Of a DNA stretch of 64,000 nucleotides, positions 1-49,445 are shown piece by piece. The translations under genes and the position numbers were made by a program. Under the pieces are notes generated by a model. That model worked only from the letters and a program-made list of their open reading frames with translations. It did not search any database and had not been told where the DNA came from. Within the stretch, counting starts at the first letter, position 1. Each line of letters begins with the position of its first letter. The DNA is from Yuukianura sp. NJ FZ-2021 (lineage: Eukaryota). Location: contig CM102289.1 of assembly GCA_046563655.1 (NCBI GenBank), positions 2,356,001 to 2,420,000 on the forward strand, read 5' to 3'.

Positions 1-3000
1 CAGATGACCTTGACGGCAATGGCGGTGAGCGTTACTACTCTGCTCTGGGAGCAGATCACGCCTTTTCCGGCATTTTTGACCGCGGAGAAATCATGAACCG
101 CAGAAGTCAACGGTCGGACCGAATTCGGTTTCAGGATCCGGAAGCCATAACAATGGAGGATCTTCCACGATCTGGCATTTTGTCACAATATCATCAAAGC
201 ACTAATCAAGTCAGCCTTCACACTAACTCCAAAAGAAAAAAGATTTTTTTTTTTTGAAATTTTTTAAATGTGATTTTTTTTTATTTTGAGGATGAGGAGT
301 CTCGCTTGTACAACGAAGATCGAGAATCGATGAACCCTGAGCGGCGTCAACCGGAAGTTCGGAGAAATATTTTTGACTCACTCGACGGATGGAACGAAAG
401 TGAAATTGCGTCGACATTCAAAGGCCTTCAACCGCTTCAAGTTCAAGTTTTGGAGGCATGTTGGAAAGGCCAAATGGATCGTCTGCATGATGCTGTGGTC
501 AAAACAAAAGAAATGAAGAAAGGTCAGAATTATGCGCCTTTCATCATAAACCATCAAGATTCACTCGGTAGAACTCCGCTTCACCTTGCATCGGCATTTG
601 GACACTCACAAATTGTCCAGTTTTTAATCCAGGAAGGTAAAAATACGTTGAACTCTAAAAATTAACCCAACTGTTTCATTTAGTTTGAAAATTCAATCTT
701 TTGAAACAAATTTTTAGGCGCCCTTTTGAATCTCTGGGATAAAACGAACAAGGTGACTCCGTTAGGTTGCGCCTGCGCATGCGGAAGTTTGCAAGTAGTT
801 GAGATTTTGATAGCTCACCATGCAGATTTGAACGCTGGGATTGGTCGATGCATGACTCCTTTACACTGGACAATACAAAGTGGATCTGAGGCTTGTTTGA
901 AAAAATTGCTTAGCGCGGGAGCAAATCAGAATGCTTATGCAATGGAAGTGGGCACACCACTCCATCTAGCTGCGGCTCAAAGGAATGAAAGATGCTTGAA
1001 ATTGTTGTTGGAAAATGGCGCCAATATTGAAACATGCAAAGTAGGATTTGTTAAAAAATGAAATTTTATATTTCTCTAGAGAATTTTTATAAATAATACT
1101 TGACCGTGTTAGGGCGGAGAGCTGTGGACGGCTCTTCATATTGCTGCAAATGAAGGTTCAGAGGAATGTGTGGAACTTCTTTTAAAAGCTGGCGCAAATA
1201 TTGATGCCAAAGATTCAAAACAGCAAACGGCTCTTCATATTTCAGCAAGCAATGGTGACAGTGACGTCACTGGGATGTTGCTGAGCCACAGAGCGAATCC
1301 AGGGGCAAAAGATTGTGATGGAAGAACAGCTCTTCACAAAGCCGTTTCAAAAGGTTAGGTGCTAATTATTGCAAAGTAACTTTAATTTTCGTTCATTTTC
1401 AGTTTCCTCGTGAAAACAAAATCTCCTGTTGTTTTGAATTGTGTATCATATTTTTAAAAAATTTGGCTCGTAGGTTACGAATCTGCGGAATGTCTCATAC
1501 TCCTTAGAGAATATTCGGCTGATATTGATGCTCAGGATAACTACGGTCACACGCCATTACATCTCGGTATTTGTATTAGATTTTTCTACAAAAAAATGTT
1601 TTTCGAAAATCCTAAATAGTGAATCAGAAATTGGTAATACACTTTACAGCTGCAATTAACGACTCATCGTTCTCGGCTTCTTATCTTCTACAAGAGGGCG
1701 CTGATGTCACGATTCGGTTTGTACTTACGATATTGTTAATAATAGTAATTGCTTTAGTTTATGTAGAGCATTTTTTTTTCAAATTTCGATATAAACTGTC
1801 TTAAATCTGATTTTTTTTGTTTACCACTTTTGTTACTGTAGAGCAAAAAATGGGCAGAGTGCTTTAGGACTGTTGGTGAAAAAAATGCCTCACGTGATCC
1901 GATATATCCGAGAGAGTTTGGACAATTCTGTGACTATAAATCACATCGACCCGACTGACCCAGAGTGCGAGTTAAAACTAGACTTTCGGTATACCGTTAT
2001 GTAATTCTCAGAGAGAAAAATTGGAGTTTTTAGTAACTAAAAATGAAATTTTAAAATTTTGAAGAGCAATGATTGCAAATCCCACCGGTAAACCATCAAC
2101 AAATTCTCAGCGGTGGCAGGGAACGACCGCGGTAGCGTCGGATAAAAATAACGTTGATGATATGCAACGTGAAACTGAATTTTTGGCATGCCTGATTCGA
2201 ACGGGCTACAAATCATACCTGTCCCACCCTCTTGTCGAGTCTTTCATTGTCCTCAAGTGGCAACGCGTTCGAGTCTTCTTCTGGATTTCACTTCTTTTTT
2301 ACGTAATTTATAAAAAAAAATATATAAATAATGTTAATATTTATGAACTTTATATATGACATGTTAATACTCTGCAGGCATTCATGGTCTTCCTGTACAG
2401 TATATACATCTACGAAGTATTCGTGTTGCGGTGCCCATTCAGTGTTCCCGCCTCGGAACTAATCAAAAACAGTTCCAGTGCTCAATTGTCAAATACTAGC
2501 GGATACTGCAAAATTAGCGCCAACATCAGTATTTTTTTAAATGGAGGCATGATTTGTTTACAAATAATTTTTCACACTAAAACTGTTCTTTTCATTTTTA
2601 GCAATGAATTCCGTACATTGTGACCTCCAAAAAAGCACGCTATTGCAGACAAATTGGTTCCTCCTGGCAATCATTACAGCGGTGATTACGTTGAAGGAAG
2701 TTTTTCAAATAATCCAAGGATTTCGCGCCTACTTTCTTGTGGTTGAGCACTACTTCCAATGGATTCTACTTGCCAACATTTTCATGTCTCTTTGTCCATT
2801 TGTGACCATGACGGACAATTGTTTAGACTATTGGCACTACCCGTCTGCTGCGGTAACACATACATAACCTTTTTATATTTTTTATCGTCTTCACATTTTT
2901 AATTTGCATAGTAAGAATCTAGTACTTCGTTTGTCAAGGTTGGCGTTCTTGCCGCTTGGAGTCTCATGTTTGTTCGAATCGGACGATTTCCTTCTCTTGG

Positions 3001-4234
3001 AATTTACGTTCAAATGCTCGTCAAAGTAAGGCGAAATTGAAGATTATTAGAATTTAGTTAAGTAGCTTCATAGTGCTTAGTTTTCTTTTTCGTAATTTTG
3101 TATAAATGGTACTTCACAATGTACATAGGTAATACAGAATTTTGGTCTGTTCATTGCCGCATATGCCTGCCTCATCATCGCATTTGCGTTTGCATTCACA
3201 ATTCTCTTTAGAGACGTGAGCCTTTGCCAAAATATTTGACAAATTTGAATCCAAAGTATGTAGTAATTTTGCATTTCGTTTATAGGAACCTCCGTTCTCA
3301 ACCATCCCACGGTCAATAATGAAAACAGTGACGATGATGGTGGGAGGTTAGGAAAAAATTTTCATATAATTTTGAAAACTTAAACATTAAACATATTTTA
3401 TCGTACTTTTCACATGTAAGCTAACATTATAGCACTTTTTTTTGAAATTGTAGAATTAAACTACGATGAACTGTTTTACGGAAAAGTGGTAGTGAATGGA
3501 GTAGAGAAAGAAAAACACGGTGCACTCAACTATCCCATCACGGCTCATATTCTGTTTGCTGGATTTGTGATTTTCATTACAATTATTTTGATGAATTTGC
3601 TCATAGGTTTGGCAGTACATGACATCCAGGTAACTTCAAATTCTAATAAGTTTAATTAAACATATAATTATAAAATAATACGATAAATAAATTTAAAAAA
3701 AAACATATAAATTAAATGTGGACATTTTACTAATTTTTTTTTAATTAAAACTTCAAGAGTTTAGAAAAAGGCGCAAGAGTCGAGAGGCTTCTGAGACAAA
3801 CTGCGTCGATTGCCGGGCTGGAGCTGTTTTTATTTTCGAGAGGACTTCATATACTTTTGCCAAATTCAATCGGAAAATTCCTGAGAAAACGGGCGCTTCT
3901 TGTACCATCAGCATACAAGTCAGCTTAAATTATGTTAAATTAAGGCTATATAAATTAGTTAATTGTTAATTTGGTAATTAACGTTAGATGGACATTTTAC
4001 TTCCGTCCGAACGATCCGCGTGACCGACGCCTTCCAAAAGACTTGGTTCGAGAAGCCCTTTGCCTCGCAAGTAGTCGGCAGAGCTCGGGCAAACGGTCGA
4101 GTCAAGCTAGAGCCATTCGTGGAGTTGGAACTGTCCGACTAACAGCCCAACTGGAGAACATGGAACAGCGACTGCGCAATGGATTTAAAAAAGATTTGGA
4201 ATCCGTTTTAGCGCAGTTTAATCAACGTGCATAA
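1..4234 (+). CDS. TRPA-subfamily cation channel (pyrexia/water witch-like), multi-exon, 5' end lies outside the window
   Basis: Successive exons encode ankyrin repeats (GRTPLHLAS, MTPLHW, GTPLHLAA, QTALHISA, GRTALHKA), then HPLVESFIVLKW, six TM segments, the pore region (TVTMMVG/ELNYDELF) and LMNLLIGLAVHDIQ. Short GT-AG introns; stop at 4232-4234. Confidence 0.9.
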
Positions 4235-4443
4235 GCAAACAATTTCATCACACAAAGAAACAAAGCCTATACATTTCAGTCAAATTAAAACAGAAACTGA
4301 CTTTCTAATAAAACAAAATCAGTGCAGTATTCCATCATTTCAGAAATTTCACTAATTCTTTTTTATAATACATAAATACAACTTTTTTTTCCTTTTTCAT
4401 AACTTCGACTTTCTGGCTTTTTATTTCGAAATACAACATTTAT

Positions 4444-4884
4444 TTATTTAACTTTTTTGGCCAAATGGTGACTAACTAGTTCATAGCCGTTGTTCAAGTA
4501 GAGTCGATGAGCGTCTTTTCGCGGGTAACTACTACTATCAATTGACATGTTGACACAATTTTCATGTTTAGCAAGATCATCTGCGAATTTCAATAGTTTA
4601 CCAGCGAAACCTTTACGTTGACTGGCAGAAATCGTGCATAGGTGGTTGATACTTAGCGTTTTTCCATCGTAAAGGTGATTTTGCATTCTCAGTCCCATGA
4701 TTGCTTCTACTTTGCCCTCTTGACCTTGAATGTAGAATAGCCTGTAGCGATCTTCTTTTCGTAGTAGCTGCACTCTTTCTACAAATTCATTTTGAACTAT
4801 TACATCAAGTTCAAAAAATACTGGCCAGCAGAGCTCAATTTCTTGAGGAGTCTTGGCTTCTTGAATGATAACTTCATTAGACAT
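4444..4884 (-). CDS. GNAT-family N-acetyltransferase, bacterial-type, 146 aa, no coding introns
   Basis: MSNEVIIQEAKT... with acetyl-CoA-binding motif A (LCTISASQRKGFAGKLL) and C-terminal DAHRLYLNNGYELVSHH. Predicted 5'UTR intron 5108-4901 (GTGAGT...TTTTCAG). Confidence 0.85.
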   Translation of the reverse strand: MSNEVIIQEAKTPQEIELCWPVFFELDVIVQNEFVERVQLLRKEDRYRLFYIQGQEGKVEAIMGLRMQNHLYDGKTLSINHLCTISASQRKGFAGKLLKFADDLAKHENCVNMSIDSSSYPRKDAHRLYLNNGYELVSHHLAKKVK

Positions 4885-5482
4885 ATTGGGATTTGCAAAT
4901 CTGAAAATTAAAAAGTAAAATTTTTCAATTAAATAAAATTCCAATTCTAAAAATCTGAAACTAAAATGCGTTTGAGAATTCAAATAGGGAAGTATAGTAC
5001 AGCTTTTTGTCTATGCTCAGCATGGAGATGGACCGTTTCAAATTTTTTGAAACTTTGTTTGAATGAAAAATATGCTCAAATCATAGAATTAAAAACGATC
5101 TCACTCACCGGCTAAGGATGAACCCTAGTTGTTGCTTCCTTTACACATAAGATTAGACGAACTAAGATTCTAATAAAAGTTCCACATCATTTGAAATTCA
5201 TTTTTTCCACTAACTTCAAGAATTTCAAATCTCACGCAAATTGTAGATCAGAAATTGGAAATTGTTTTTCTGAGAAGATGCAGTGCATTTTATATTACTA
5301 GTGTTTTATACTCATGTAAAAATTTGTACTTTAATGTGTTAAAATAAATAATAAAACTAATAACTGTACAAACAAATTAGCTTAAAAACTAATTAACTGC
5401 GAATTAATTAACTCTCGAGGAATTAAATAACTATAACCTGAAAGTTGAACTATACCACACCTACACTTTTTAATTTTCTCGC

Positions 5483-6863
5483 TTATTTGAATTTTCTTCT
5501 TATACTTTTTTCTACAAGTGATCTAAGCTCCTCGTCATCTTCCGTAGCACACAATTGTCCTCGTCTATTTACACTCTTGAAACTAGATAAGTCAATTGCC
5601 TTTGGATCTTTAGAGGGCGTCAGCAGCCACAAAAGCGCTGCAACTCCAATTCCAAGCGTCAAGGTCGTGTCAAGCCCCAAATATTCTAAGCCAGTTGTTC
5701 CCAGGAACCAAAAAACAGCCAATCCCACTAAAGTTGTAATTTGACTTGCTGTTGGCGCCAAAATCAATGTTTCAACTGCATCAACCAATCTCTCAATTGG
5801 GTTCAAGCGTTCTTCTGACCCCATGCTTCTTCCTTCCGATCGACATTTTTGCACATTTTTCAAACTTTGGAGATTTTCACTGGAATCTTCTTCTTTTGAG
5901 TCTGCTCGAGCCAACGCCGCTGCGCCTGCCTCTTCCCCTGGAGGAGTGGTTCCATGTGATTTGGTCAGAAAGTGAAAAGATCAAAAGTGAAATGATCAGA
6001 AAAAAAAGGTCAGAAAAGGAAGGAACGTAACCAAACCTAACCTTAGATCTTTTGAATTCTGACCTTTTCACTTCTGATCATTTCACTTCTGACCAAATAT
6101 TTCTGACCATTTCACCTGCTACGGGAGGAGTGACCAACTCCGCTGGAACGCCAGCTAGAGCTGCAAGGGCTTCGACTTGTTCTTGTCTTATTTGAGTAAG
6201 ACGTGGACTATCGGCGCGTAAGGAAACGTTGATACCAAACATTACAATGGCCATGACGAGATTTGCTATAATGAAGGGTACAAGCAGAATGGCTTGCACA
6301 GCGGTAAAAAATGGTGCAGCACCTTGTTCCACCGGAAGTGCGGGAAGCGGAACTCCAGGCGAAGGAAGTCCTTGACGATTGGCAGGGTTGCGATGATTTA
6401 TGACTTCGTAACTAACGTCTTCTTCTGAGTCGGATTCTGCCGATTCGTCAGACTCCACTTTTTCCAGTGATTCTGATTTTGCTTTTTCAGAACTTTGTGG
6501 TTGAGTTGACTCATCGCCTGATTTTTGTGGAACAGTCAAAGTTAGGTTCAGCGTCTGGAGTAACTTGGTGGGATCTGTGATTCCGAGAATGACTAAATTT
6601 GTGTAGTTATTTTTGAAGGCTTCGTAAGTTTCCCATTGAGAACCCAACTCTTGTTTGAATTCATTAACTTTGTTTTGAATAAATTTTGGAACTGGCAGTA
6701 TTTGTTGTGAAGCATTCACGAAGCAAAGGATCCAAATAAACTGAATTCTGTTAATTCAAATTTAAAAAAATAAATCTAAAGAAGCAGAAAACAAAAGTAG
6801 AATTTAAAAACTACACTGCAATAAATGACTTAGAAATATCTAATATTACCCTATTCGTGCCAT
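5483..6863 (-). CDS. Orphan protein with signal peptide and hydrophobic segments (~365 aa); exons 6863-6850, 6747-6116, 5937-5483
   Basis: Splicing gives MARIGIQFIWILCFVNA/SQQ... The ORFs 6078-6719 and 5483-5914 join in frame when the MITE-derived intron 6115-5938 is removed. No recognisable domain. Confidence 0.65.
5948..6123. mobile_element. Foldback/Mutator-like MITE forming an intron of the orphan gene
   Basis: Inverted arms built of GGTCAGAAAGTGAAA / TTTCACTTCTGACC units. Termini GGTTCCATGTGA and TCACCTGCTACG. Direct repeat GGAGGAGT at 5940-5947 and 6124-6131. Confidence 0.85.
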
Positions 6864-8044
6864 TCCATGCACTTTATAATAGGTTTGTGTTGCTGTAAAC
6901 TTCAATCCAAAAACCTTAATGTGTTACTGTACTCTCAAAATCTACACAATGTGTGTCCATTTTTAGAAGAAAAATAAAACCACTACAATATCTTATGTCA
7001 CTTGTTCTATTGGCTGTCGCTTTTCTTCTAATGTGAGTCATAAATGAAAGTGAGTCTTCGCAAATCAATGAAATATGGGACATGAAGACATGATAAACTT
7101 GATTTGAAACTTTCTTTTTTAAACTTGTCAGGCCAGAATTTAAAAGCAGACATAAGTGTGATAAGTTTGATTATAACCCAACCAAGCAATGGGACTTGGC
7201 ATTTGATACATCGTATATGTATAGCCTGCCACTATTTTTCTCAACCCGTTCCACTTGTACTGCAGGAATTTCAAGCCCGCAGCTTGCAAAATGGCTGAAA
7301 ATCGGCAACTTGCCCGAACGTGGCTGCCAATAAAGCTCTTTCTGGAAGCCCGTCTGCAGCCCGCGCAATCTACGCAAAGTTAGCTTGCAATAAAACAATA
7401 AATTGTGTTATTCATTACAACCACTTCAGATACTCCGTTTTCCTTTAATTTCCATTGTTTAAACGCGCTATAGTTCGTATATGCTATGGGACACAACATT
7501 ATAGAGTAACCAAAAACGCTATCCAATTTTACTTTTCAAGAAACAAATTTTACTGTTTCTTTCTTCATTTTTTGTGAGATTTGAAAGTTCAAGGCAAACA
7601 ATAACCAACACTCACGTTAGTACAACTGCTAACTTTGAATTGCGTACTATATTTTTTAAGTTTCAAAATTTAGCCCTTTTGAAATTGCCAGAAAATAACA
7701 AGCTAACTGTGCGAAGTTTCAAAAAAAAAAAGGTGAATTTCCGAAAACGTAAATATATGTGTTTTTGTAAACAAAATTGAAAAATATATTTTTTGGTTAC
7801 AAAGATAAGTATACTAATATTCATGTTAACTTTCAAAACAAAATAAATGGCTACAAAATTGATTCTTTTCTCCCACGAAGTTTAGCTTACACATGTAAAT
7901 TTCTATCTTAATTATATTTACAACACAAATTATACTAATAGATTATACTAATTAAAATAATATCTAGTTTAATTATTTTAACAACTTGGTTTTCCAGAAA
8001 AAAGATATGGATTTCGTGTCTATTTTATGATCTTTTAAGAATAA

Positions 8045-9045
8045 ACCGGTTGTAAACCGCCCATACTGATAATAGCGAAGCAATAGGCCCCCCGAAGGGG
8101 GTTTGTTCCCTACCACTTTCCTGCCTCCCCCCCGGGGGGAGTGGGGGTATGTTTTGCCGCTTTTTTGCTCCGCACCCCAGGAAGCGTGGGGGTGTGTTCC
8201 CCCCACTTCCCCGTCCCCCCCCAGGAGGCGTGGGGGTGTGTTCCCCCCACTTTCCCGCCCCCCCCCCAGGAAGCGTGGGGGTGTGTTCCCCCAACTTTTC
8301 CGCCCTTCCCCAGGGGGTGTTGAAAGGTGAGACGTGACAGCTGAGGCGTGACAGGTGACAGGTGAGACGTGACAGGTGACACCCGGCAAGTGACACTTGA
8401 GGGTGACAGGTGACACCCGGTATGTGACAGGTGACACCCGGCAAGTGACACTTGAGGGTGACAGGTGACACCCGGTATGTGACAGGTGACACCCGGCAAG
8501 TGACACTTGAGGGTGACAGGTGACACCCGGCAAGTGACAGGTGGCAGGTGACACCCGGTGGACACAGTGCATGAGTGTGTAAAGTGTCTATGTCAACTGC
8601 GTAATAGATTTTTTGCTAAGCAGAGAACCAAGTCCCACGCCAATTGCCTTCCCAGTCTCACAAGAAGAGTTTTTGTTACACACACTTGCAAGTGACCTTT
8701 GAAATCGATTTTGACCCGGAAGCAGGTGACCTAGGGTCACACATTACACACAAAAGTTGTTCCCCTCGATGAGATGAACAACTTTTGTAGAAGTCATTTT
8801 CCCGGTTACCAGGGATAAAACCGGTTGACCTTGACCTTTGACCCGGAAGGAGTTAACACGCGGGGGTCATATTCAATAGTGACCAAGCCCGGGTCATGAC
8901 ATGGTCACTGGTGAAAACCGGAATCAAATCGGACCAGTAGTTTCTGAGATAATTAATCTGGACAGACAGACAGACGGACAGACAGACAGACAGACAAACC
9001 ACTTTTATCATAATAGCTTCGCTATTATAATAATGAGCGGAAAAT
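8045..9045. mobile_element. Non-autonomous Helentron/HINE (DINE-1-like) element with internal minisatellites
   Basis: Subterminal inverted repeats ATAATAGCGAAGC (~8069) and GCTTCGCTATTAT (~9015), a small hairpin near 8047, and a (GACA)n tract at 8961-8996. Internal GGGGTGTGTTCCCCC repeats at 8095-8320 and GTGACAGGTGACACCCGG repeats at 8325-8565. Confidence 0.7.
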
Positions 9046-9867
9046 ACTAGTGCAAACTGTGTGAGAGTAAACAAGGTCAAATTAACAAATAGCTTACGCT
9101 ATTTAATAACCGGCATTTTTTTTCGTGCATCCTGTTCCTGGCTCTATTTATTGTTTAGAAACGTCATAAGCACGTATGTAAGTTATGGAAAAACCTGGAA
9201 CCGTGTTTTGAGTTGTAATTGTTTTCCTTCACCTTCTACTGGTCGTTAACCTTGATTATTACTTAAACCTAAGTTTAAATTTCTTGTTACCCCAACTGGA
9301 ACAGCACCTTAGTGAATTCAATTTCTTTCAACTTAAATTCCTAAGTCTACGGATTTAAGCCATAGTACTCTTATTTGTCGCTGTTTTTGGAAATGTTGCA
9401 TTAAATTTAAGTCAACTAGGTGTGTAAAGTAATGTGAACTAAACTGACAAACTGCAAATAAATATATTGGACTTTGGCTCGAAGAGTTTGTGCAACATAT
9501 ACATGTAAAAGTTGTTGCAAAATTTCACTTTCTCACACTTCACTAGCTCGAATTTTCGGTCAAAACATGATAATTGACGTAGGTGAATTCTATGAATGCC
9601 AAACATGAGTTTTTCGTAATGATTACAAGAAAAACAATTGTGAAACACTGTGTTAACACTATCTAAAAATTGGAATAAAATCTTTATTACTAAAATTAAT
9701 TATAATTGTGAGAATAATTTTTATACCTGTTGATTACACACAACTTAAATTCTTGTATAAAACCAGAACGTTCGTGGCATTGTAAACATCATTGAGAATT
9801 TCAGAAAATTGCCTTTAAATTTTCAATTTGTCCACGAACTTTGGTGTAAAACGCGAAAGGTAAGACT

Positions 9868-10175
9868 CAAGGTTCAAGTAGCAACGAAATAGTTTTTCTT
9901 TAACAGGTTAGCTAATAAGTCTCTCTTTTTTTTCAAAAATTTTGCTGCAAACAAATATACAGCAAACATCCCACTGATTTTCCCCCAACTTATGCAAAAA
10001 TTTAACAGTTTGCACAAACAGGAACGTTCCAAATGAAAAAAAAAGTTCGAAGGAAAAATTTCCCGGGAAACGAGAGTTACCGATAATTTTTGAAATTTTG
10101 AAAATTAAAAGAAAAAAAAACAACATATTGCCTAACCTGTTACAGGAAAAACTATTTTCTTATTTACAAACATCG
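9868..10175. mobile_element. CAAGGTT-family MITE in the predicted PKS 5'UTR intron (9860-10252)
   Basis: Begins CAAGGTT, has internal ACAGGTTAG/CTAACCTGT inverted blocks and a degenerate end AACATCG. Flanked by GGTAAGACT / GGTAAGACC. Confidence 0.7.
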
Positions 10176-10262
10176 GGTAAGACCGATAAGGTCAAAATTA
10201 ATTTTAAAATTTTATTTCTACATTGTTTTTAAATTTTCAATTTTTATTTCAGGTAGAAAGAT

Positions 10263-13200
10263 ATGGGTTCCACGACAATTGGTTCTGGTACGCCTATAAC
10301 CACAAAACAATATGAAATGAGAGATGCAATTGCAATCATTGGAATGAGCTGTAGATTTCCGGGTGCGAATAACGCGAAGGAGTTTTGGGAAGTGCTTTGC
10401 TCTGGTCAAGACGCCATTCGGTCATTTCCGGAGGAAAGAGCACAGGAAGCCAAAAATCAATTTGGGATGGATTCGGACATCAAGGCGGGCTTTTTAAAAT
10501 GTAGAGTGGACGAATTCGATGCTCAATTTTTTGGAATTAGCCCTAGAGAGGCCCCATTGATTGATCCTCAGCAGAGACTTCTTTTGGAGGTTACATGGGA
10601 AAGCTTGGAAGACGCAGGAATCAACGCTCACGAACTCAAAAGCACTTCGACTGGCGTATTCACTGGGATTTGGCAACCAGATTACGATAGGATTCTGCAC
10701 ACTACGACAAAGGATGCAAATGACTTGTTCCATCGCTACCTTGGAAACGCTTTTAGCGCAACTGCATCGCGGGTGTCTTACTGCCTTGGCCTACATGGTA
10801 CAAAACCAAGGTTGCTATAGCGACCATTTATTCAAATGCGATAGCAGGTTATGTCATAACTCACTATTCTCCAAAAACTTTTGGACGAATTTTGTATTAA
10901 TCCCATTTGGTTTATATGGCGCAAGGTCAACAAATTGCAGAAAATTTAAAAACAAACAATTTTTGTTTAAATGGGAGTAATGGCATAACCTGTTGAGGAA
11001 AAATAAAAGAAAAACTTCGATTTAAATAATGTTGGTACAAAACAGGAAAAAAAATTAACTTCCCTACGTTTTATAAAGTTACTGAATTTTTTAAATTTGA
11101 TTTTTAGGCCCGGCAATTGCACTCGAATCCGGATGCTCTTCATCCCTTGGCGCCATACATTTGGCCTGTCAAAGTCTTCTTAATGGAGAATCTTCTCTTG
11201 CTATTGCGGGTGGCGTCAACTTAATCCTGATTGGAGCGAATCCGTTTACAAATGCTACGGAAACCGAAGGAGACTCCATTGTGCTCTCGAAGGATTTCAA
11301 GTGTAAAACATTTGACGAATCTGCTAATGGATTTGTGCGGTAAGACATAAATTTTTTGGCACAAATATGAAATGCTTATAAAACTGAATTAAAAAAAAAT
11401 AACGCATGGCAGAATGCAAATAATCAACAATGTGTTGTATAACCTAACAGAGCGGAAGGTTGTGGCGTTTTGATTTTGAAGAAATACGAAGAGGCAGTGG
11501 ATACTGGGTGCCACATTTTGGGAATTGTTCGCGGCAGTGCAATAAATAACGACGGAAACGGAAGCAGTTTTGGAACTCCGAGTGCGCATGCTCAAGCAAT
11601 GGTTTTCGAAAAGGCTCTTGAAAAAGCTGGAGTGACGCCAGATCAAGTTTCATTCCTCGAAGCTCATGGAACTGGGACTCCTGTTGGTAAGCATATTTAA
11701 CTGCCTTCATATTTCCTTTTTAAAGCAAACTTTTAAATATTTTTCTATGTAAGTGTAGGTGATCCAATCGAAATGGAAGCCATTCGGTGCGTTTATTCAA
11801 AAAATCGAACGTCTCCTCTTTACATCAGCTCTGTCAAGACTAACATAGGACATTGTGAAGCTGCCGCTGGAATTGCCAGTGTCATCAAAGCAATTCTCTG
11901 CATTCAAAAGAAGCTTCTTCCTCCGCATTTGAACTTGAACAAACTCAATCCATACATCAACTTAGACAAAATTCCAGCGATTATTCCAACGGAAACTACC
12001 GAATGGAAATCAGAGCAACGAATCTGCGCAGTAAGCTCCTTCAGCATGAGCGCCACTAACGTCCATGTCATTCTACAAGAACCCCAAGCAATCGCATGTC
12101 AATCCGCTTCTACTTCACACAGCGTATGCCGCCCACTTGTCATCACGGTTTCTGCAAAATCCAAAGAGGCTTTGGACGCTTTGATTCAAGGTTCGTGAAG
12201 GCACAAATGGTTTTTTCTACAACAGGTTGTCCTATAACTCCGGGTTTTTTAATTTTGTGCTTTCAAAAATTAAACCGGTTCATCTTGACCTCCGTTTAGG
12301 TTACAAGTTTATCTTTTTTCCCTTGTAGTAATAGTCTACCAGTTGGAAAAAATTAGAGGAAAAAACTCAAACAAAATTGGTGCAGGAGGTTTGAAGTAAG
12401 ATTTTTGGAAACCCTGAGTTATTGGACAACGTGTTGTAGGAAATACGACTCGGTTGTCAAATAACCTTGCTTTGATTGCAGCTTATGTCAAATATTTGGA
12501 AAATCATACGAACATCACCCTGGAAAACTTTGCTTATGCTGTGAACGTCACTAGGGCGCCATTGCCGCACCGAATTGCTATTACTGCGTCAACGACGCAA
12601 GAAGTTCTGGAAAAATTGAAACGCCAAGATTGGTCATACGCAAAATCATCAAACGTTAAATCAAAAATTGCCTTTCTGTTTCCCGGACAGGGTTGCCAGT
12701 ATGCAGAAATGGTGAAGAATCTCGCAGAATCTTTTCCTGTTTTGCAAAATGCATTGGATGAAGCAGATGAGATATTTGAAGCTTGCCTTCATAAAAAGCT
12801 GACGCATGTCATATGGGAAAACCCAAATCTGTTGAACCAAACACTTTACTGTCAACCTGCAATTGTTGCTGTTGAATACGCCTTGGCACAACTTTGGAAG
12901 TCTTTCGGAATTGTTCCGGATGCAGTTCTGGGACACAGCTTAGGAGAAATAGCTGCGGCGATTTCAGCAGGAGTTTTGTCATTGGAGCAAGGTTTGAAAT
13001 TAATTATTGCTCGTAGTCGTTTAGTCGATAAATTGGAGGAAGGATCTATGTTAGCTGTTAGCGGCAATGAGCAAAGGACAAGATTTCTGATTGCTGAATT
13101 TCAAAAATCCCGCCAGAGTGAATGGATTGACGTAGCAGCAGTAAATTCAAATAGTGAAGTCGTGGTATCTGGCCCTAAAAAAACTATTACGGAATTTGCT

Positions 13201-16200
13201 GAATATTGCCGTGAACAACGCGTGGAAACAATTGCAATATCAGCACAACATGCCTTTCACTCAAGGCAAATGGACGATATCCTCAAACCATTTAGAACTG
13301 AACTAGAATCGATTTTAGAAAAAACAGGAAGTGCACCAATCATAAAGTATATTTCGGGAACAGAAGCCAAAGTTGTTGAAACTAGTTTAGCATTTGGTCC
13401 TGACAATTGGGAAAAACACCTACGAAATCCAGTTCGTTTTTCGCGCGCAATTCAAACTTTGCTGAATGATGAATTCCGGACGTTTGTTGAAATTGGGCCC
13501 AGTCCTGTCCTTCTTGGCATCACAATGACAAATGCTGCCGAAACTTCTTTCACCGAACTGAACCTTGTACCTTCCGCCCGGCGTACGGATCCTACACGAC
13601 TTACATTTCACGATTCACTAATCAAGTTATATTTACAAGGACACAGAATTAACTGGAGAGGGCAGACGCCCAACAAAGGCCAACATCTCCAAATTCCGAA
13701 GTATCAATTTCAACGACAGTCATACTGGATAGGACAAAACGTTGACCACAACATGTCGGATGCTGCCCAAATTGGGTCATGTTTTAGTGGCGTTGCGAAT
13801 CAAGACAAAATACATCCGCTCCTCGGTTTAGAAGTCTTCATGCCAGCTTCATTACGCACTTTTGCAAACTTCGTAACGGTTAAACACTATCCATATTTGG
13901 CGGATCACATCGTAGCTGGACTTAAAGTATACCCCGCTGCTGCTTTCATTGAAACTGCATTTGCGGCTGCGCGAGAAATTTTACAGGAAGGCGGTACACT
14001 CAAATGCCCGTTGACCTTACAAAAATTTGGAATTGATGCGGCACTTGACATTGCTACTGGAGTGGAGTTGTATACGACAGTAGAGCAACTTGAAAGTGAA
14101 CATGGACTTACCTACAACTTGGAAATTTTGAAAAAGGTTAAAAATGGAACATTCAAACGGAATATTTCTACAAAATTTGTACCAGGTTGCAAAGCTTTAA
14201 ACAAAAAGCAACTGGATATCAGCGACATCAAACGGCGATTACAAAAGAAAGAAAGTGGAGCAATCGATCGTGTTTATTCTGCCATCGCCAGTAGGGGAAT
14301 AGAATTCGGACCGACATTTCAAAGCATCAAATCCGTCTACACATCAGACAATGGTGAATTTCTAACAGAAATTTGTCTTCAGGAAAATGCGACCTCTGCC
14401 GAATACATTTGTCATCCTGTTGTGATTGATTCATTACTTCAAACAAAAGCGCTCCAAATATACTTTGTAGATGCGAGTAACAATATGAACGTCGGTGACA
14501 ACAAAATCTGTTTACCAATTGCAATCGAACAAATCACGTGGTTTTCGGAAACACTCACGCCGAAACTCTACACTTACTGCTTTCCAAACGAAATAGATGG
14601 CAACTCTTCCGTTTTTTTGGTAAACGAAGATGGGAATTTGCTACTTGAATTGAAGGGGGTAGAGCTAATTGAAACTACTGCTGAAATAGTGTTGAACTCA
14701 ATTGAACATCAAATCCCAAATGACATGAATTTTTCAGCGGAGGTTTGGCGCCCAGTTTCAAATTATACTAAAAACATAGTATCAAGTGTTGTCGAACATT
14801 TTTGCGAAGTTTCGGCTGAATCCGAATGCATTCGGAAGTGTTTAGACGACATCCAACAAATACACGATTTCCATAAATCGGACGATGATTACGATAAACC
14901 TGGATTGCTTGCAATTATGAATGCAGTGCAAGTTTGTGGGTGGCCATATCAGGTACATTACGAAACTGAAAAAAAAACTTTATTATTTAAAGATATTATT
15001 AATTAAACTAATTAGCTAATATCTATATCTGAATTCCAATTTGTTGTAATTTTTATTCCCTGCGATAATGTTCCAGGTCGGAGCGATTTTGAACCCAGAA
15101 GATTGGAAATGTCGAATTCCAGTGGGCGTACCACAGCAAGTCGTCGACTTTTATTTGTACAAGCTTGAAATGACAGGATACCTCCAAAGTGTACAAGTCT
15201 CTGAAGGTTCAGGGTATCGCGTACTGCGACAATTGGAATCACCGTCAAATTGTGAAAAACTTGTTCGGGAAATAGGAGTTAAGGCAAGAAATGAAATATT
15301 CAGTTTCAATATGGCTTGGATGGTTAAGTACTGCGATGAGCTGCCACTAGTTCTGAGTGGAAAAATGACGCCTATAGAATACCACTTTCCCACCGATACT
15401 ACAAAACTAGGTGCAATGAAATTCTACACTGAGGCAATAGCTTACCGACATCAGTGCGTCATGGCCATTGACTGTTTGATTCAAACTGTTAAGAATCTAA
15501 CTACTCCGAATCCGAATACATCCGACGAACATGGAAAAACGGTTTATCCCAACGAAAAAACCTTGACGACACAAATTTTGGAAGTTGGGGGTGGAGGTGG
15601 AATGGCCACTGAGTTGCTCATTTCTCAGTTGAAATCAACCTCACATTCTTTTGAATACACGTTTACAGACATTTCACCATTTCTTGTCGATGCAGCTAAG
15701 AAAACGTTTTCAATCTACCCTGAATTTGCTTTCCAAACTTTCGATATTGAGAAAGATCCACTTCCGCAAGGCTATTTGCCAGAATCATTTGATTTAATAT
15801 TTGCATGCCAGGTATTGCATGCAACCCGAGATTTGGCAGAAACTCTACAAAACTTGAAGGTTCTTCTGCGATCTGGTGGGCGCTTAATTTTTACAGAGTC
15901 GTTCGGAATTATGGAATTTTTTGATTTGACTTTTGGACTGTTAGAAGGTTGGTGGAGATTTAGCGACTTTAGAAAAGAAGAAGGAAACTTAACACCAGTC
16001 GTTTCTTCCGATAAATGGCGCGAACTTTTGATCAGAAATGGATTTGAAAATGTGAAAACAATCGAAACGGCGTACCCGGGTGGAGTAGTAGTAGCTACTA
16101 AATCAAACGCACAGTTGTTGCCTACTGCTGTGCCAATGCATGGTGAACATATTTCAAAGCCTAGCTGGGTCACGGTATCGGATCAAAATCCATTGGCTGC

Positions 16201-19200
16201 AAGTGTGATCGAATTACTACGACAGTCTAATAGAAATGTGACAACGTACAACGTTGAAGACTGCATTCTGAAGGATGTATTGCTAGACGTGAATTTGGAA
16301 GGAGTTTTGTTCTTTTGGACAGGAAGCGACGATGAAGAAGGTTTCGCCGGTGAACAAGAAAAGTACATTGGCAGCCTTCTCCGCCTCCTCAAATTTTACG
16401 TCGTCACAGAAAAAGCGAAAGGCTCCAAAATTCGAATTGTGACTCGCGGGGCGTTTCAAATTGGAGACGACGAAATTCCAAGTCCCAACAAAACAGCGCT
16501 GTGGGGACTTGTGAGAGCGTTTCGCAACGAATGTCAACGGTACGATCCTTTCCTCATAGACTTCGGTCAAGTAGAAGGCAAACACGAAAGTCACCAGCTA
16601 TTTGCTACTCTGTTTACCCCAAAAGCCGAAGAAGCAACCGCTTTTCGAGGTGACCGGACATACGTGCTTCGATTCGTGGATGAACTGCCGAAACGACACA
16701 AAGTCAAACTACCAAATTGCGAGCGCTATCGGTTCATAAATCCGCCGAGTAATTGCTTCACTGATATTAAAATTGGACCTGACACTGCTAGAGATCTAAG
16801 GGACACGGATATTGAAGTTGCCGTCAGAGCATGCGCACTAAACTTCAAAGACATTTTTTGTGTACTAAAACCAAAGGAATTTCAAATTCCAAAAGAACAT
16901 CTGGAACATATCGGCCTCGACGTTTCTGGAGTCGTGACCCGAGTTGGGTCAAAAGTTACACGACATCAAGTTGGAGACGAAGTAGCCGGAATATCTTCGG
17001 CGTGTGGTATTGCGAGTCATACAGTATCCTCTGAATTCGGATTTTGGAAAAAACCTAAAGAAATTTCGTTTGCGGCTGCTGCTGGATGCCCTACAGTGTA
17101 TCTGACAGCACACTATGCACTACATCACTTAGCCAAAATACAACCCGGCGACCGTGTGTTGATTCATGCTGGAGCTGGCGGCGTTGGCCTTGCAGCTATT
17201 GATATTGTAAAGAATTGTCAAGGCCAGGTTTTTGCAACGGCCGGATCAAAACGAAAACGGACCTATTTGCGAAGATTTTGCGGAGTAAGTCAGATCTACA
17301 ACTCTAGAAACACCAGTTTTGGGCAACAAATTCTTGATGAGACAAATGGGGTGGGTGTTGACATCGTGCTGAATTGCCTCACCGGACCAGGATTCAAAGA
17401 AGCATCACTTGCAGCGACTGCGCTCAACGGAAGATTCGTTGAATTGGCCAAGCTGAACATTTGGACAACCGCAGAGATCAATCAGCTCCGTCCAGACGTT
17501 GACTACAAATTTATTGAGTTGGTTTCTATGGATTTCATGGAAAAGGAGACCTTCCAGATACAATGCGCAAGCTTGAACTTAAATTTCGCGACCAGCTTCC
17601 GAAACTTCCATGTAAAGTTTTTCCTCTAGAGGATATTCAATCCGCTTTTTATTACTTTCAAGAAGCAAAACAAATTGGAAAAGTCGTATTGCGCATGCCG
17701 GCAACAGAAGTTAACAACGGAGCTCTAATTCACATAAACAAAATCTTTAATACGTGTTCCACTTATCTTATTACTGGTGGCCTTGGTGGAATAGGAATTG
17801 AGTTGGCAAAATGGATGACAATCAAGGGAGCTGCAAATATTGTTTTGGTTGGAAGAAAACAAGCTTCTACCCATGCGCAGGCAGTTATTGATGATTTAAG
17901 GAACAAAGGACTCAACATTCTTGTTTTAAATCTGGACATTTCAAAAGAAGAAGACTGTGACAGAACTGTTCCGCGCAGTTGAAGATTCCAAAACATTTCC
18001 GCCGATCAAAGGAATTTTCCATGCTGCTGGAGTACTGCACGACGCAGCATTTGAAAACCAAAGTTGGGAATCACTGAACGCCTCACTTGCTCCAAAAGCC
18101 CACGGCGCATGGAATTTGCACTGTCGCTTTCTAAACACAGATTTGGAATTTTTTGTTTTATTTTCTTCTGCAGCGTCACTGTTTGGCAGCATCGGTCAAG
18201 CACCTCACGCAACTGCAAACAAGTACTTGGATGGGTTCGCGTGGTATCGGCATTCGCTCGGCTTGCCTGCAACGAGCATCAACTGGGGATTGTGGTAAAT
18301 AATTTTGGTGTATTTTGAAACTAAATTTTATAAATCTCCCCATTTTTTTCAAGAACCTATTCCTGCGGCAAATTATTTTTTATTCATTTTTCCATTATTT
18401 AGGAAAGACATTGGAGCAGGAGTTGGTGTCACAAATGACCAAGAAAATAGGCTTGGCCTTAAGGGATTTCCTCCAAGGGACGGTTTCAGGGCATTAGAAG
18501 AACTGATGACTTCAGACTTGCCACAAGTAGCATTCGTACCCACACGCGGCTGGAAAATTATGAAAAGCTTCTTCTCTCTTGGTCACTATTTCGATGAAGT
18601 AGAAATTCACAAGGATACGAGTGACAGATTAGAAGAATTGCAAAAGGAAATTGATGTCATCAAAACCATGTGAACCCGAGTCTACGACAAGAAAAACTGC
18701 GTGTAAGTTCTTGAGTCAATTATCAAAGAAACACTGAGGCTTCCAAAAGACGAAGTTCTGGACATCGACCAGCCACTTGAGTGAAATGGGAGTCGATTCT
18801 CTTATGGGTATGGAAATGAAGACACGTCTAGAAAAGTTAACGAGTCGTAATCTTCCAATCAGCACGCTTCAAGAGTACCGTACTATTCGGAAGCTGTCAG
18901 CGTATGTCGCTCGGGTTCTAGACGACGACAAAGATTCAAACGCATCTTCCATTGATCAAAAGCATGTTTTAAGTTCGGACTCAATTTTGCCGTCCGAGCT
19001 GAAGGAAGCTTTGGAAAATGCTTCGAAGAAATCAGCAACAAACAGAGATTTTAAATCAATTCTTTTGACCGGCGCGACGGGTCACTTCGGCGCTCACGTC
19101 CTTCCAGAAATTCAGAAAATGAGCAAGGAAATTCACATATTTTGTTTGCTTCGTGCAGCTTCTGACGAAATTGCAAGAGAAATTCTTCACAAAACTCTGA

Positions 19201-20226
19201 CATATTATGACCTCTTGGGAGAGGTCAACTTTAACCAAATTTCTGTTATTGCTGGAGACATTTGTCATGACCTGCTTGGATTGCCACAGAAAAAGTACGA
19301 TTTGTTGACTGCACGAGTTGACGCGGTTGTTCATTGTGCCGCAAAGGTCAATCATGTTGAGAGTTACTATGACGGTTCTGGATTTGACATGCGATCGGTC
19401 AATGTCCTAGGCCTTCTGCGCATCCTCAAATTCTGTACAGGAGGACGACTCAAGCATATCATGTATCCATCAGCTTTGTTATGTGTGACGGAACTGGATG
19501 AGGATGGAGCACTTCCAGAACGTTGGCTACCACTCAATTCTTTTGAGAAAATACAAAATGGATATCTTCAATCCGAAAAGCATTTGTGAGGCGCTACTGC
19601 AACAAGCTGAAGAAGCCGGACTTCCGGTCACGCTTTTCCGAATTCCATTTTTGTATGCGAGCTACGCTACGGGAATTCCGAGCAGAGGATTTGATCACGT
19701 CTGGACTCTAATTTCAACTTGTATCAGACTAAGAAAGTTTCCAAACCTTGTTCATACTGGAGGAATTCCAATATTTCCGGCCAATATTTGTGCCCAAATT
19801 TGTGCAGAAATTTTCATGAAAAGTGACACCGAAACTGGAGTATACAATCTCATCAACGTCAAACAAATTACGCAGCAAGACGCACAAGCAATTGGGGCCG
19901 AGCTGGGCATTGACTTTGAAATTGTTGAGTTTACTGAGTGGAGGGACGCTGCATTCGAAGAATTGGATGACGATTTGATGCGACCATTGTTTCCAATCTA
20001 CGCCGACACAGAAAGTGGACAATCAAATGTGTTTGCGTTTCACTCTTTGGGAAACGAATGGAACCGAGCGCTCCACAGGGACTACAGTACAAAAACTCTT
20101 AAAAACCTGCCGGGAATTGAAGCGGTGAATTCGTTTTCTCCACAGGAGTTATTTCGACGTCGCTTAGTGAATTCCGTACAACAAGAACAACAAAAATTGT
20201 CCAAAAAGAACAGCGCTTTTGCATAG
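10263..20226 (+). CDS. Single-module type I polyketide synthase KS-AT-DH-cMT-ER-KR-ACP-thioester reductase (~2980 aa); frameshifted in this assembly
   Basis: KS: DPQQRLLLE, ESGCSSS, EAHGTGT, KTNIGHCEAAAG. AT: FPGQG, GHSLG, HAFHS. DH: HIVAGLKVYP, DSLLQ. MT: LEVGGGGG, VLHAT. ER: LIHAGAGGVG. KR: ITGGLGGIG, HAAGVLHD. ACP: GVDSL. R: LTGATGHFG, GYLQSK. Predicted introns 10798-11107, 11340-11450, 11687-11758, 12191-12481, 14953-15076, 18295-18402. Confidence 0.93.
10807..11034. mobile_element. CAAGGTT-family MITE in the first coding intron of the PKS
   Basis: CAAGGTT ... CAGGTTATGTCAT / ATGGCATAACCTG ... AATGTTG. Flanked by the 9-bp duplication GTACAAAAC, which includes the intron donor. Confidence 0.75.
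12187..12469. mobile_element. CAAGGTT-family MITE inserted in PKS coding sequence and predicted to splice out as intron 12191-12481
   Basis: TIR CAAGGTT...AACCTTG, internal CTACAACAGGTTGTCC / GGACAACGTGTTGTAG, and TSD CTTTGATT at 12179-12186 and 12470-12477. Confidence 0.9.
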
Positions 20227-21007: not shown

Positions 21008-25612
<4,605 letters not shown>

Positions 25613-45748: not shown

Positions 45749-46603
45749 ACTTACAAGTCCTTATAGCACTTGCTAAATGCATCATAAAAAGATCAGGAAT
45801 TGCTTTTCTGGAATTTTTGACATGCTTCAAAAACTGGGTGTATGATACCCACTTAATAAAATAGAATTACAGAAATATGAACACAAGCTAATAGTAACAT
45901 CGAGCATTCTATTAAATAAATTTTGAATTTCAATATTGTGATTGAAGTTTTCATTGTAGTTCTGCTGTACCAGGTTCGGTACAGCAGAACGTAAGGCATG
46001 AGTTTAATAAGTACAAACTTTCCAAGTTAGAAAAAGTGCAAAGTACAAAACAAATGATAGCTGAGGAATACAAAATAACTTAGATATATACACAATACTT
46101 GACGGGATACCCACGAAATGACATATGAAATCGGCTCATCGTTTAGGAATCTTTGACAAGAATCCAAGAATTCGGAATATTAAAGTCATTAAAAAATAGT
46201 ATTACAGAAATATGAATGCATACTAATGGTAAGGTCGAGTAGGGTATTAAATAAATTGACAGTCTGAATTTCAATATTTTGCATTCCTCCTCCAAAGTTT
46301 GAAAACCGTCATACTTCCACGAAGTATTTTTTCAATAGTTTAAAATTTCAGAACGAAATTAAGAATTTCCATTATCTATGTTTGTGAATTTAGTTCAAAA
46401 TTTCTATTCGTATATTGAAAAAGCTTCTTCTTTTTTTAAGAAAGTATTATTAAAGAAACATGTCTTTTAAGTGGCTTTACTTTGATGGAATCAATACAGA
46501 CTGTCTAAAATGGCTAAGAATTTCAAAAGAAATAGGAGAATTTTCAGGCTATATTGAGCTTTTTTTATTGAACTTCATTTTAGTTCGAAATATATATTCA
46601 AAC

Positions 46604-48141
46604 ATGAAGAAAACTCTCCCTCCGGATATTTTGGTTCTACTGCGCTCAATTGCAAATGCACACCAAACTTATCAAAATCCATTGCAGTACAATCAACGGC
46701 GTAACCGTTGCACCTTAGACGAATCAAAAAAGTATCAAAATTGGTCATTTTGCGTTTTATTCGTCGACACATTTGCACTGTTCGTGCTTGGCTTCCTGGC
46801 GTCAATTAACTACTTCAAAGATCTCAGTCCATTGCTCACTTTTCACTTACTTTCAATAGTTTTAATGGATGGTCACAACATCGTATGTGACATACATGCT
46901 GTATACAGAGGGAGAAAGCTCTGGCAACAAGTACTCAACGTGATACTACAACACCTAGACAAAAACAACGGTAAATTAAAATTAACCGTTGTAAATGCCG
47001 TAGGGCAGTAACGAAATAAATTTTAAGGCATTTGCCATGCACTATTTGATTGCATGCAACCTTTAAAAGCTGTACAGTCAAAGCTCATAGGGTGGCCTTC
47101 ACAATTTTTTTTTTAACGAGAGGTTGTTTCTCTCGATTTACAACGAGGGGTCGGAATTCAGTGGCTTTTTGCGGAAACTCGAATTCCGAATACATTGGAA
47201 TTTTAGTCAGCCAAATTCAAATTCAAATTCGAATTTCAGCTTCCCTCTTCCCTAAGGTTTTTGATTAAGAATATTTGATATTTGAATATTTTGTCTGTTT
47301 TAAAGAATTCTTTTTCTATTATGCAGATTCACTTTTTCGCTGGACAGGAGCAAAGGTCAATACACTTCGTTGTATGAAGGTGTTCTACTATTTGACTCCA
47401 GTGTTTGGCACAGGCTACGTGTGCACTACTGTCATTGGATTTTACAGTGATGCTGTACGCCTAATAGAAGTAGTCATGCTGTACATGTCACTAGATATCT
47501 ATTTGCATAGCGAAATATTTATCATCGTATCACAGTTTTTGGTATTAGTCGTTTTTGGATTTTTTGCTTTTTTAATATATTTAACCACATACAAATATAT
47601 TCAGTATGGCCTTGTTGTGCTTGTTCTTCACGATCTAGCACAAGCTTCATTATCTACTGCACAATTCAACGAGAAAGCCACCGAATTTTTCTTGCACTTG
47701 GAAATTCAGCGCTACAAAGCATTCTACATTTTGGTAGCCTTAGTCAGCGACTTTTTTCTGCTACCGTTCGCGTCATATGTCATACTAGCCTCTGGGTTTA
47801 CATCAATATCATTTGCTGTATTTTTTAAAATTGGGTTTAAATCAATTTATGGCTATCTTATTGTAAGTATGGCGACGATAATATTGGTTTTCCTAAATAT
47901 TTTCCTCTTCGCTGCGGAGTCGTTAGGTTCTGCTTCCAAGAACTTCATCTCTAAACTAATGAAAATGCCTGGAATGTCAAAAGAGGGTGTTAAGGTAGCC
48001 AGCTGCCTAAAACCAAGCTTTATAAGATGTGGAACACTGAACTACGTTGATAGTGGAATGATTATGAACATCAACGCAAATATTATAGACTACATGATAT
48101 CTCTACTCATCTTACTAAAGGAAACATCTATTTCAAACTGA
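46604..48141 (+). CDS. Gustatory-receptor-like 7TM chemoreceptor, copy 1 (intron 46971-47326)
   Basis: ~390 aa, multiple hydrophobic helices. The C-terminal FIRCGTLNYVDSGMIMNINANIIDYMISLL resembles the arthropod GR TM7 motif. One of four paralogues. Confidence 0.7.
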
Positions 48142-49294: not shown

Positions 49295-49445
49295 GACGGA
49301 ACCCGTGATGCTTACGCATCACCAAATAACTTGAAGCACTAGGTCATACTCGGGTCAAACGAAAAAGCTAGCGGATTTTTGACAAAATGTTCAACATCAC
49401 CCTTCCTTCATGTCATCGTGATGTGTAAACATCACGGGTTCCGTC
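49295..49445. mobile_element. ~150 bp MITE with TA flanks
   Basis: TA|GACGGAACCCGTGATG ... CATCACGGGTTCCGTC|TA. Confidence 0.8.

Follow-up and report, generated by a model that had tools for sequence, protein, structure and literature searches.

Gene structure and domain organization

The DNA analyzed here (the window) is a stretch of 64,000 nt from Yuukianura sp. NJ FZ-2021, taken from positions 2,356,001 to 2,420,000 of the forward strand of contig CM102289.1 (GenBank assembly GCA_046563655.1), and all coordinates below are positions within it. On the forward strand between 10263 and 20226 lies one gene encoding a polyketide synthase (PKS) of type I, whose domains as identified with Pfam follow the order ketosynthase (KS), acyltransferase (AT), dehydratase (DH), C-methyltransferase (cMT or MT), enoylreductase (ER), ketoreductase (KR), acyl carrier protein (ACP) and thioester reductase (R). 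An original prediction had described this gene as a microbial-style reducing PKS with C-methylation and reductive release residing in an animal genome, and the analysis presented here supports that description.

The stop-to-stop forward-strand frames between 10257 and 20226 together hold a complete type I PKS domain set. The gene opens with an ATG at 10263 and its stop codon ends at 20226; exon joins, made by script from the junction sequences, gave seven exons separated by six GT..AG introns of 310, 111, 72, 249, 124 and 108 nt (Table 1), which bears out the start, stop and spliceosomal introns proposed earlier. Four of the six introns are in the KS region, and intron 3 splits a KS motif between HGTGTPVG and DPIE. 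Pfam matches along the protein ran from ketoacyl-synt and Ketoacyl-synt_C (in four pieces; E-value 1.6e-45 for ketoacyl-synt) through a CurL-like KS-AT linker, Acyl_transf_1 (1.5e-58), PKS_DH_N and PS-DH (7.8e-18 for PS-DH), Methyltransf_12 (1.2e-17), ADH_N and ADH_zinc_N (1.1e-12 for ADH_zinc_N), KR (7.1e-40) and PP-binding (2.8e-09) to NAD_binding_4 (3.2e-30). All motifs quoted in the original prediction, namely those of the KS (including KTNIGHCEAAAG), the HAFHS of the AT, the glycine-rich motif of the MT and those of the terminal NAD(P)H reductase, were found in the translation, and the domains to which they had been assigned were confirmed by Pfam.

Table 1. Exons, selected introns and frame interruptions of the PKS gene (window coordinates).
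Feature	Coordinates	Strand	Content
Exon 1	10263..10797	+	Start codon; N-terminal part of KS (ketoacyl-synt); GT donor at 10798
Intron 1	10798..11107	+	310 nt, GT..AG; small inverted-repeat element at 10845-10992
Exon 2	11108..11339	+	KS active-site cysteine (ESGCSSSL)
Exon 3	11451..11686	+	C-terminal half of KS as far as HGTGTPVG
Exon 4	11759..12190	+	DPIE, NIGH, start of KS-AT linker; Ketoacyl-synt_C and KAsynt_C_assoc (Pfam)
Intron 4	12191..12439	+	249 nt; contains a very high-copy repeat
Exon 5	12440..14952	+	KS-AT linker; AT ~12673-13632 (GHSLGE, HAFH); DH ~13813-14688 (HIVAGLKVYP, HPVVIDSLLQ)
Exon 6	15077..18294	+	cMT ~15578-16057; ER ~16802-17692; KR ~17758-18294; open only after indels at 17544 and 17966
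Exon 7	18403..20226	+	Linker; ACP ~18700-18908 (GVDSL); thioester reductase ~19059-20226; stop codon; open only after five 1-nt removals
Seven single-base indels	17544..19575		Differences from run contigs

Frame interruptions in the 3' part of the gene

The assembled reading frame changes seven times at places which leave no room for an intron (near 17544, near 17966, three times within 18668-18707, at 18779 and at 19573). These seven 1-nt breaks, all in the last third of the gene, had been missed by the original prediction. They were compared with contigs of four public DNA runs, of which three (X1-X3) come from one sample (2025) and the fourth (X4) from a separate study (2021). The run contigs have 1-nt indels exactly at the places of the frame breaks. 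An extra G behind 17544 was present in all four runs and in all of the depth, while one base fewer at 17966 was found in 174.8 of 236.9 units of contig depth in X1, 79.8 of 79.8 in X4, 0 of 108.8 in X2 and 0 of 44.7 in X3 at that coordinate. One base fewer was likewise observed in run contigs at 18668/18670, 18675, 18707, 18779 and 19573/19575. Among the X3 contigs, records 20-23, which are near-identical to the window (0-1 other letters), had 2 + 3 + 1 + 1 gaps, seven in all, and the independent X4 study agreed at five of the seven sites.

Applying the seven corrections gave a coding sequence of 8985 nt without an internal stop, encoding 2994 amino acids. The corrected protein was collinear with the homologues P0001, P0122, P0124, P0246, P0247 and P0260 through each corrected site, as exemplified by CEPSLRQEKLRVILESIIKETLRLPKDEVLDIDQPLSEMGVDSLM and the matching stretch of P0247. 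Because the indels in the run contigs restore an open coding sequence that is collinear with homologues, the seven frame breaks are probably assembly errors. An intron of 36-40 nt at 17520-17560 was also considered as the cause of a frame break and was dropped, since the run contigs have a 1-nt insertion there.

All seven indels fell within about 2 kb, and the rows shown gave none for the 7 kb of the gene that come before, which suggests that the polishing of the assembly was locally poor at 17544-19575. With respect to X4, contigs about 94% identical to window 15502-18293 (records 29-31) were present at a depth of about 80-90, and identical contigs elsewhere in the gene at a depth of 3-5; this pattern suggests a close paralogue, or the copy of a related organism, plus traces of the same sequence.

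Homologues and phylogenetic placement

Homologues were sought with the AT-DH and MT-ER exons in a collection of 5.8 billion proteins and by HMMER in 1.84 billion representatives, the latter giving 5,667 hits below 1e-30. One near relative was found, P0001, an open reading frame (ORF) from a JGI metagenome which was 49% identical over residues 340-2389. It starts in the equivalent of exon 4 and ends in ...INWGVW, where exon 6 of the window gene ends in INWGLW followed by GTAA. Because it stops exactly at the exon 6 donor of the window gene, P0001 is identified as a predicted exon-bounded ORF of another eukaryote, having intron 6 and lacking introns 4 and 5. Several further relatives were 31-41% identical, and the remaining matches were bacterial PKSs at about 27-35%.

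The named eukaryotic relatives found were two, both from the springtail Orchesella dallaii, namely CAL8118587.1 (annotated as 'unnamed protein product') and CAL8085358.1 (annotated as 'Erythronolide synthase, modules 3 and 4'). These proteins were collinear with the window protein from end to end and shared its Lys-Ser-His (K-S-H) KR triad, and one of them, P0124, had the same KS-AT-DH-MT-ER-KR-ACP-R order, although identity was only about 32% overall and about 40-41% in KS-AT. Residues 1-255 of the Orchesella proteins P0124 and P0260 form an N-terminal extension of about 250 amino acids, 32% identical between the two and partly shared by P0246 (residues 1-42). The extension gave no Pfam hit at 1e-5, and no exon matching it was found anywhere in the window.

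Among bacterial proteins, that of Chthoniobacter (P0134, MEA3210677.1, 2911 amino acids) was 30.6% identical over residues 12-2900 and had the identical domain order, and the Rhodopirellula-cluster protein P0209 (Aporhodopirellula rubra WP_184303702.1, 3002 amino acids) was 28.3% identical over residues 15-2901. Both share with the window protein eight domains in a single module, a similar length and an end-to-end alignment, but they are intronless and 28-31% identical, and P0134 fell outside the animal-containing MT-ER clade described below. In a scan of bacterial genomes, one per species, the best of the broad matches listed were 28-37% identical, with short segments reaching as much as 44%; in a scan of metagenomes the contigs of P0001 and P0122 were not among the matches listed. 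The R domains nearest to that of the window protein were those of clade members (139-179 bits, versus 96-124 for bacterial R domains). An Atlas search with the MT-ER part returned bacterial and then ascomycete clusters only.

Two metagenome loci were also characterized. Locus L023 has 37% G+C and an intron-like gap of about 110 nt inside the R domain. In locus L001 the KS to R domains lie in one long frame of 45-52% G+C between flanks of 36% G+C with one ORF of at least 100 amino acids; a single in-frame stop was observed in its KS region (1895-1897), the frame of about 2,950 codons (1367-10219) being open elsewhere.

The MT-ER tree (LG+G4, quick search) contained 93 rows, made up of the window protein, the top 75 of 215 covering proteins and all 17 covering loci, and the KS-AT tree contained 88 rows (the window protein, 57 of 248 proteins and 30 of 80 loci). 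In the MT-ER tree the window protein and P0001 formed a pair (support of 100) within a group of five rows (100), which lay in turn within a clade of 24 rows (SH-aLRT 99). Both Orchesella proteins belonged to this clade, as did L001 and further unnamed rows, and every named bacterial row was among the other 69. The Orchesella proteins were in a different subclade from the window protein, which grouped with P0001, P0122, P0244 and P0245. In the KS-AT tree the window protein was in a clade of seven rows (SH-aLRT 100) with both Orchesella proteins, P0246, L001, P0317 and P0269, and the other 81 rows, all named bacteria included, lay across a branch with a support of 100. The two halves of the protein agree in assigning the predicted window PKS to a springtail-containing PKS clade, which also includes unnamed contigs that are partly intron-bearing.

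Catalytic motifs and predicted product

In the spliced protein the Cys-His-His triad of the KS is present (ESGCSSSL, EAHGTGT and KTNIGH). The AT, matched by Acyl_transf_1, has GHSLGE and QHAFHS; HAFH in an AT denotes malonyl-type selection. Both DH motifs, HIVAGLKVYP (HxxxGxxxxP) and HPVVIDSLLQ (DxxxQ), are present in the region matched by PKS_DH_N and PS-DH. In the cMT, LEVGGGGG (S-adenosylmethionine (SAM) motif I), VLHAT and LLEGWW are intact, and the motif residues H, A, T, G, W and R were invariant in the homologue alignment A1; the conserved His/Glu motifs of C-methyltransferases have a catalytic role. The ER, matched by ADH_N and ADH_zinc_N, has its NADPH-binding glycine motif HAGAGGVGLAAI. 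A single phosphopantetheine serine motif, GVDSL, marks the ACP, which joins the frame of the upstream linker only once the read-supported 1-nt removal at 18779 is made. Finally, the R domain has TGATGHFG (TGxxGxxG) and GYLQSK (Tyr-x3-Lys), the latter aligned with GYPVSK, GYVISK and GYALTK of homologues. The closest solved R domains were those of the myxalamid reductase MxaA (73.7 bits, the best match), which we take to be an alcohol-forming release reductase, of a PKS and of a mycobacterial Nrp, together with carboxylic acid reductases.

With respect to the KR, the Rossmann motif TGGLGGIG and the catalytic Lys and Ser are present, with His at the textbook position of the catalytic Tyr (GQAPHATAN, window 18130-18160). 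The K-S-H triad was found in 13 of the 19 clade members with data, and P0001 and P0122 also have it; among the best KR matches of 342 other homologues, 146 were K-S-H and 181 were K-S-Y, the K-S-H group including named cyanobacterial PKSs. A defect or sequencing error as the source of the His was rejected, the variant being common both in bacterial homologues and in the clade. No discussion of the variant was found among the papers listed by a literature search. As the DH and ER remain intact across the clade, the KR is taken to be probably active despite its K-S-H triad.

With this set of domains, the AT would load malonyl units and the KS would condense them, either iteratively or onto a fatty-acyl primer, a mode of use suggested by the presence of one module with no partner PKS nearby. 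The cMT would add SAM-derived alpha-methyl branches in some or all rounds, the KR, DH and ER would reduce every beta-keto group, and the terminal NAD(P)H reductase would free the ACP thioester as an aldehyde or a primary alcohol. The product is predicted to be, probably, a methyl-branched fatty aldehyde or alcohol. Iterative use, methylation pattern and chain length are what we infer from the gene, as is the role of the product, which may be a cuticular lipid, a defensive compound or a signal.

Origin of the gene and alternative explanations

The KS N-terminal exon and the AT-DH exon were compared with solved structures. For the KS exon, bacterial PKSs scored 105-115 bits (among them DEBS at 115.5, CurL at 111.3 and GfsA at 111.1), compared with 90.8 for Dictyostelium PKS16, 73.8 for human fatty acid synthase (FAS), 70.9 for LovB and 69.5 for pig FAS. 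For the AT-DH exon CurL was the best match at 244.6 bits, with DEBS at 190, and neither FAS nor LovB was among the 60 listed of 132 matches. The predicted protein is of the bacterial cis-AT type rather than an animal FAS or animal FAS-like PKS (AFPK). Cyanobacterial cis-AT modules with cMT and ER (Cur/Jam; CurL 4mz0) are close in several respects: CurL ranked first for the AT-DH exon and third for the KS piece, the KS-AT linker is CurL-like, and they share the frequent K-S-H KR variant. They differ in being parts of multi-protein assembly lines, whereas the window gene encodes a stand-alone enzyme with a release reductase. The fungal highly reducing PKS LovB (7cpx) is iterative, as the window protein would be, and likewise follows a KS-AT-DH-cMT-ER-KR-ACP logic, but its KS score was far below the bacterial range and it was absent from the listed AT-DH matches.

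The most economical reading, and the most likely one from these sequence comparisons, is that the gene was long ago acquired whole from bacteria, because the eight-domain layout exists as a single bacterial protein and because of the ranking in the structure database. Intron gain and diversification would have followed in the animal lineage. Taken together, we consider it likely that the locus holds a nuclear, intron-bearing, arthropod-like gene for a single-module, bacterial-type, highly reducing type I PKS of 2994 amino acids, in a deep clade that includes the Orchesella proteins, and that such an acquisition, intron gain and diversification gave rise to it.

This reading has to be set beside what the literature reports. 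PMC5490193 credits Folsomia candida with 36 biosynthetic clusters, of which 30 are type I PKS, and calls most of the genes horizontally transferred. Lin et al. (PMC10764717) describe very few true PKSs in arthropods and cite a Folsomia PKS, OXA62418.1, as horizontally acquired. The Folsomia clusters resemble the window gene in being microbial-type, resident in an arthropod genome and uncharacterised, a likeness drawn from the descriptions in those papers and not from sequence; no Folsomia protein was among the matches listed. The window gene has precedents, since springtail genomes hold such PKS genes, as seen in PMC5490193 and in the Orchesella proteins.

Several considerations weigh against the reading of an acquired and intact PKS. 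Both trees are unrooted and lack rows for fungal and amoebozoan PKSs, for animal FAS/AFPK and for other PKSs of animals, and their bacterial rows are those most similar to the query from the matches listed. Many rows in addition have a deviant composition. The trees demonstrate clade membership, not the direction or date of a transfer or nesting within bacteria. The evidence from the runs consists of contigs rather than raw reads, and the window may itself have been assembled from the X1-X3 sample. A smaller share of the contig depth in X1 and X2 agrees with the window at five sites, one of them 18675 (56.5 of 250.6 in X1), and a frameshifted allele may coexist with the open version. No RNA was among the public runs listed as containing the stretch, and expression and splicing are predicted from DNA. 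The replacement of the catalytic Tyr of the KR by His belongs here as well.

The alternative that best withstands the evidence is that the clade represents an ancient PKS lineage of eukaryotes or of animals, passed on vertically and lost from most animals, rather than a bacterial acquisition. The clade is deep, with the window and Orchesella proteins 32% identical overall, and in both midpoint-drawn trees it is sister to, and not visibly within, the sampled bacteria; over the MT-ER part, the bacterial genome sequences among the matches listed reached no more than about 37% identity. Mollusc PKS genes, according to PMC10764717, also have few introns, concentrated at the N-terminus, as does the window gene. 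Set against this, bacterial cis-AT PKSs were clearly nearer than fungal, amoebozoan or animal enzymes among solved structures, the complete architecture occurs in one piece in Verrucomicrobia and Planctomycetes, and surveys find very few true PKSs in arthropods and ascribe the Folsomia one to transfer (PMC10764717, PMC5490193). We judge vertical descent to be unlikely, and retain bacterial acquisition.

A decaying pseudogene, in which the seven frameshifts would be real and no working KR, ACP or R domain would remain, is a still less probable explanation. The assembled frame does break seven times between 17544 and 19575, part of the X1 and X2 contig depth matches the window at five sites, and no RNA run was listed for the gene. 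However, the extra G at 17544 occurs in all of the depth of all four runs, the near-identical X3 contigs have exactly seven gaps with X4, from another study, concurring at five sites, the corrected gene has 2994 codons without a stop and homology continuous through each site, and the catalytic motifs downstream of the breaks are all intact. An intact PKS gene remains the preferred description.

It is very improbable that the gene is an animal FAS or an AFPK, enzymes of the latter group being thought to make branched lipids in arthropods (PMC10764717). Animal FAS and AFPK are also animal-encoded type I megasynthases with a KS-AT-DH-MT-ER-KR-ACP order, and AFPKs are described in the same paper as widespread in arthropods, a few of them having R domains. 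Animal FAS is characterized there by an inactive pseudo-MT, a thioesterase and many introns, whereas the window gene has intact MT motifs, an R domain and six sparse introns. The score of the KS against FAS was some 40 bits below its score against bacterial PKSs (69-74 versus 105-115 bits), and the AT was likewise far closer to bacterial PKSs; the MT retains both its SAM and its catalytic motifs. No thioesterase match was obtained with Pfam in the PKS protein, the R domain standing in its place, and no FAS-specific Pfam family scored above the cut-off. As the original prediction had proposed, the enzyme differs from animal FAS: its intact MT motifs, reductive terminus and KS bit scores set it apart, and the family to which it belongs is one without a characterised member.

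Implications for arthropod polyketide and lipid biosynthesis

Among the papers listed by literature searches, none presents a functional study of any member of the clade. The window gene is a new member of a known and uncharacterised kind of PKS, springtail PKS genes being already on record. The survey in PMC10764717 concludes that true PKSs are few or absent in arthropods, whose polyketide-like lipids derive from FAS-like enzymes. The window locus provides a clean, genome-integrated counter-example: it is intact and intron-bearing, and at least 23 relatives share its clade. It also offers an example, dated by its introns, of the domestication of a transferred megasynthase gene. Springtails have unusual cuticular and defensive lipids, and their chemistry includes unexplained lipids (PMC10825826). 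If the host is a springtail, an enzyme with SAM-dependent methylation and release of an aldehyde or alcohol would be a testable candidate for the source of such compounds, the link being a candidate one.

A broader proposal can be put forward tentatively, as a possibility we do not favor. Soil arthropods, beyond springtails alone, may house bacterial-type cMT/R PKSs that form a large family of ancient residence in animals, which would provide a SAM-methylated route to branched aldehydes or alcohols independent of FAS, AFPK and methylmalonyl-CoA and would feed cuticular or defensive lipids; the window gene would then represent a deep subclade otherwise known only from metagenome contigs.

Genomic setting and neighbouring features

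Genes neighbouring the PKS gene encode proteins with Ank, GNAT, COesterase, CD36, Reeler, Pkinase, ABC_membrane/ABC_tran (ABCC-type) and 7tm_1 (rhodopsin-type G protein-coupled receptor) domains, and are therefore metazoan genes. The original prediction had placed the PKS among ordinary arthropod genes; the metazoan nature of the neighbours was upheld by Pfam, and the narrower assignment to arthropods comes only from language-model look-alikes of one neighbour family (see below). The G+C content of the PKS gene (0.39-0.44) is near that of its flanks (0.35-0.43).

Host repeats were found inside the PKS introns. X1 contig depth was 2327 over 10584-10917 (intron 1) and 23023 over 12254-12587 (intron 4), compared with about 200 in exons. 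Intron 1 has a pair of inverted repeats of 38 nt (10845-10882 and 10955-10992), with a related arm in intron 4 (12212-12241), and the element in intron 1 looks like a miniature inverted-repeat transposable element. High-copy repeats were observed at 10826-10992 and 12212-12416, and run contigs connect 10826 with about 12213. X3 contigs (records 17, 19 and 21) cross exon-intron borders at 10808-11649, 14394-15679 and 18091-18764, and record 24 extends about 1.4 kb beyond the 3' end of the PKS gene.

On account of its introns, the flanking animal genes and the host repeats inside its introns, the PKS gene is integrated in the animal genome and contamination, which the original prediction had also discounted, is excluded for practical purposes. 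The chance of bacterial contamination or a chimeric assembly join is negligible: outside its own clade the protein is indeed most similar to bacterial PKSs, but the gene has six spliceosomal introns, a G+C content near that of its flanks, metazoan genes on both sides in one contig, high-copy host repeats within introns 1 and 4, and run contigs that span its exon-intron borders, one of them continuing past its 3' end.

Elsewhere in the window, a two-exon gene encoding a multi-pass membrane protein is present in five tandem copies on the forward strand at 46454-58312, which share the C-terminal motif CGTLNYVDSGMI. The copies matched no Pfam family; with 47269-48141 as query, the large collection yielded no homologue at E <= 0.001 in the length range of 159-508 amino acids, and the family's language-model look-alikes in the Atlas were unnamed clusters labelled 'commonest Arthropoda'. 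Rfam gave no match in the window. A single-exon ORF for a GNAT acetyltransferase (Acetyltransf_1, 7.5e-07) occupies 4444-5010 on the reverse strand, 5 kb upstream of the PKS gene. Tandem repeats at 8097-8543, whose periods are 45 and 55 nt, give rise to long spurious minus-strand ORFs at 7973-8615, and a scaffold gap of 100 N (22941-23040) lies inside the region of the downstream carboxylesterase gene.

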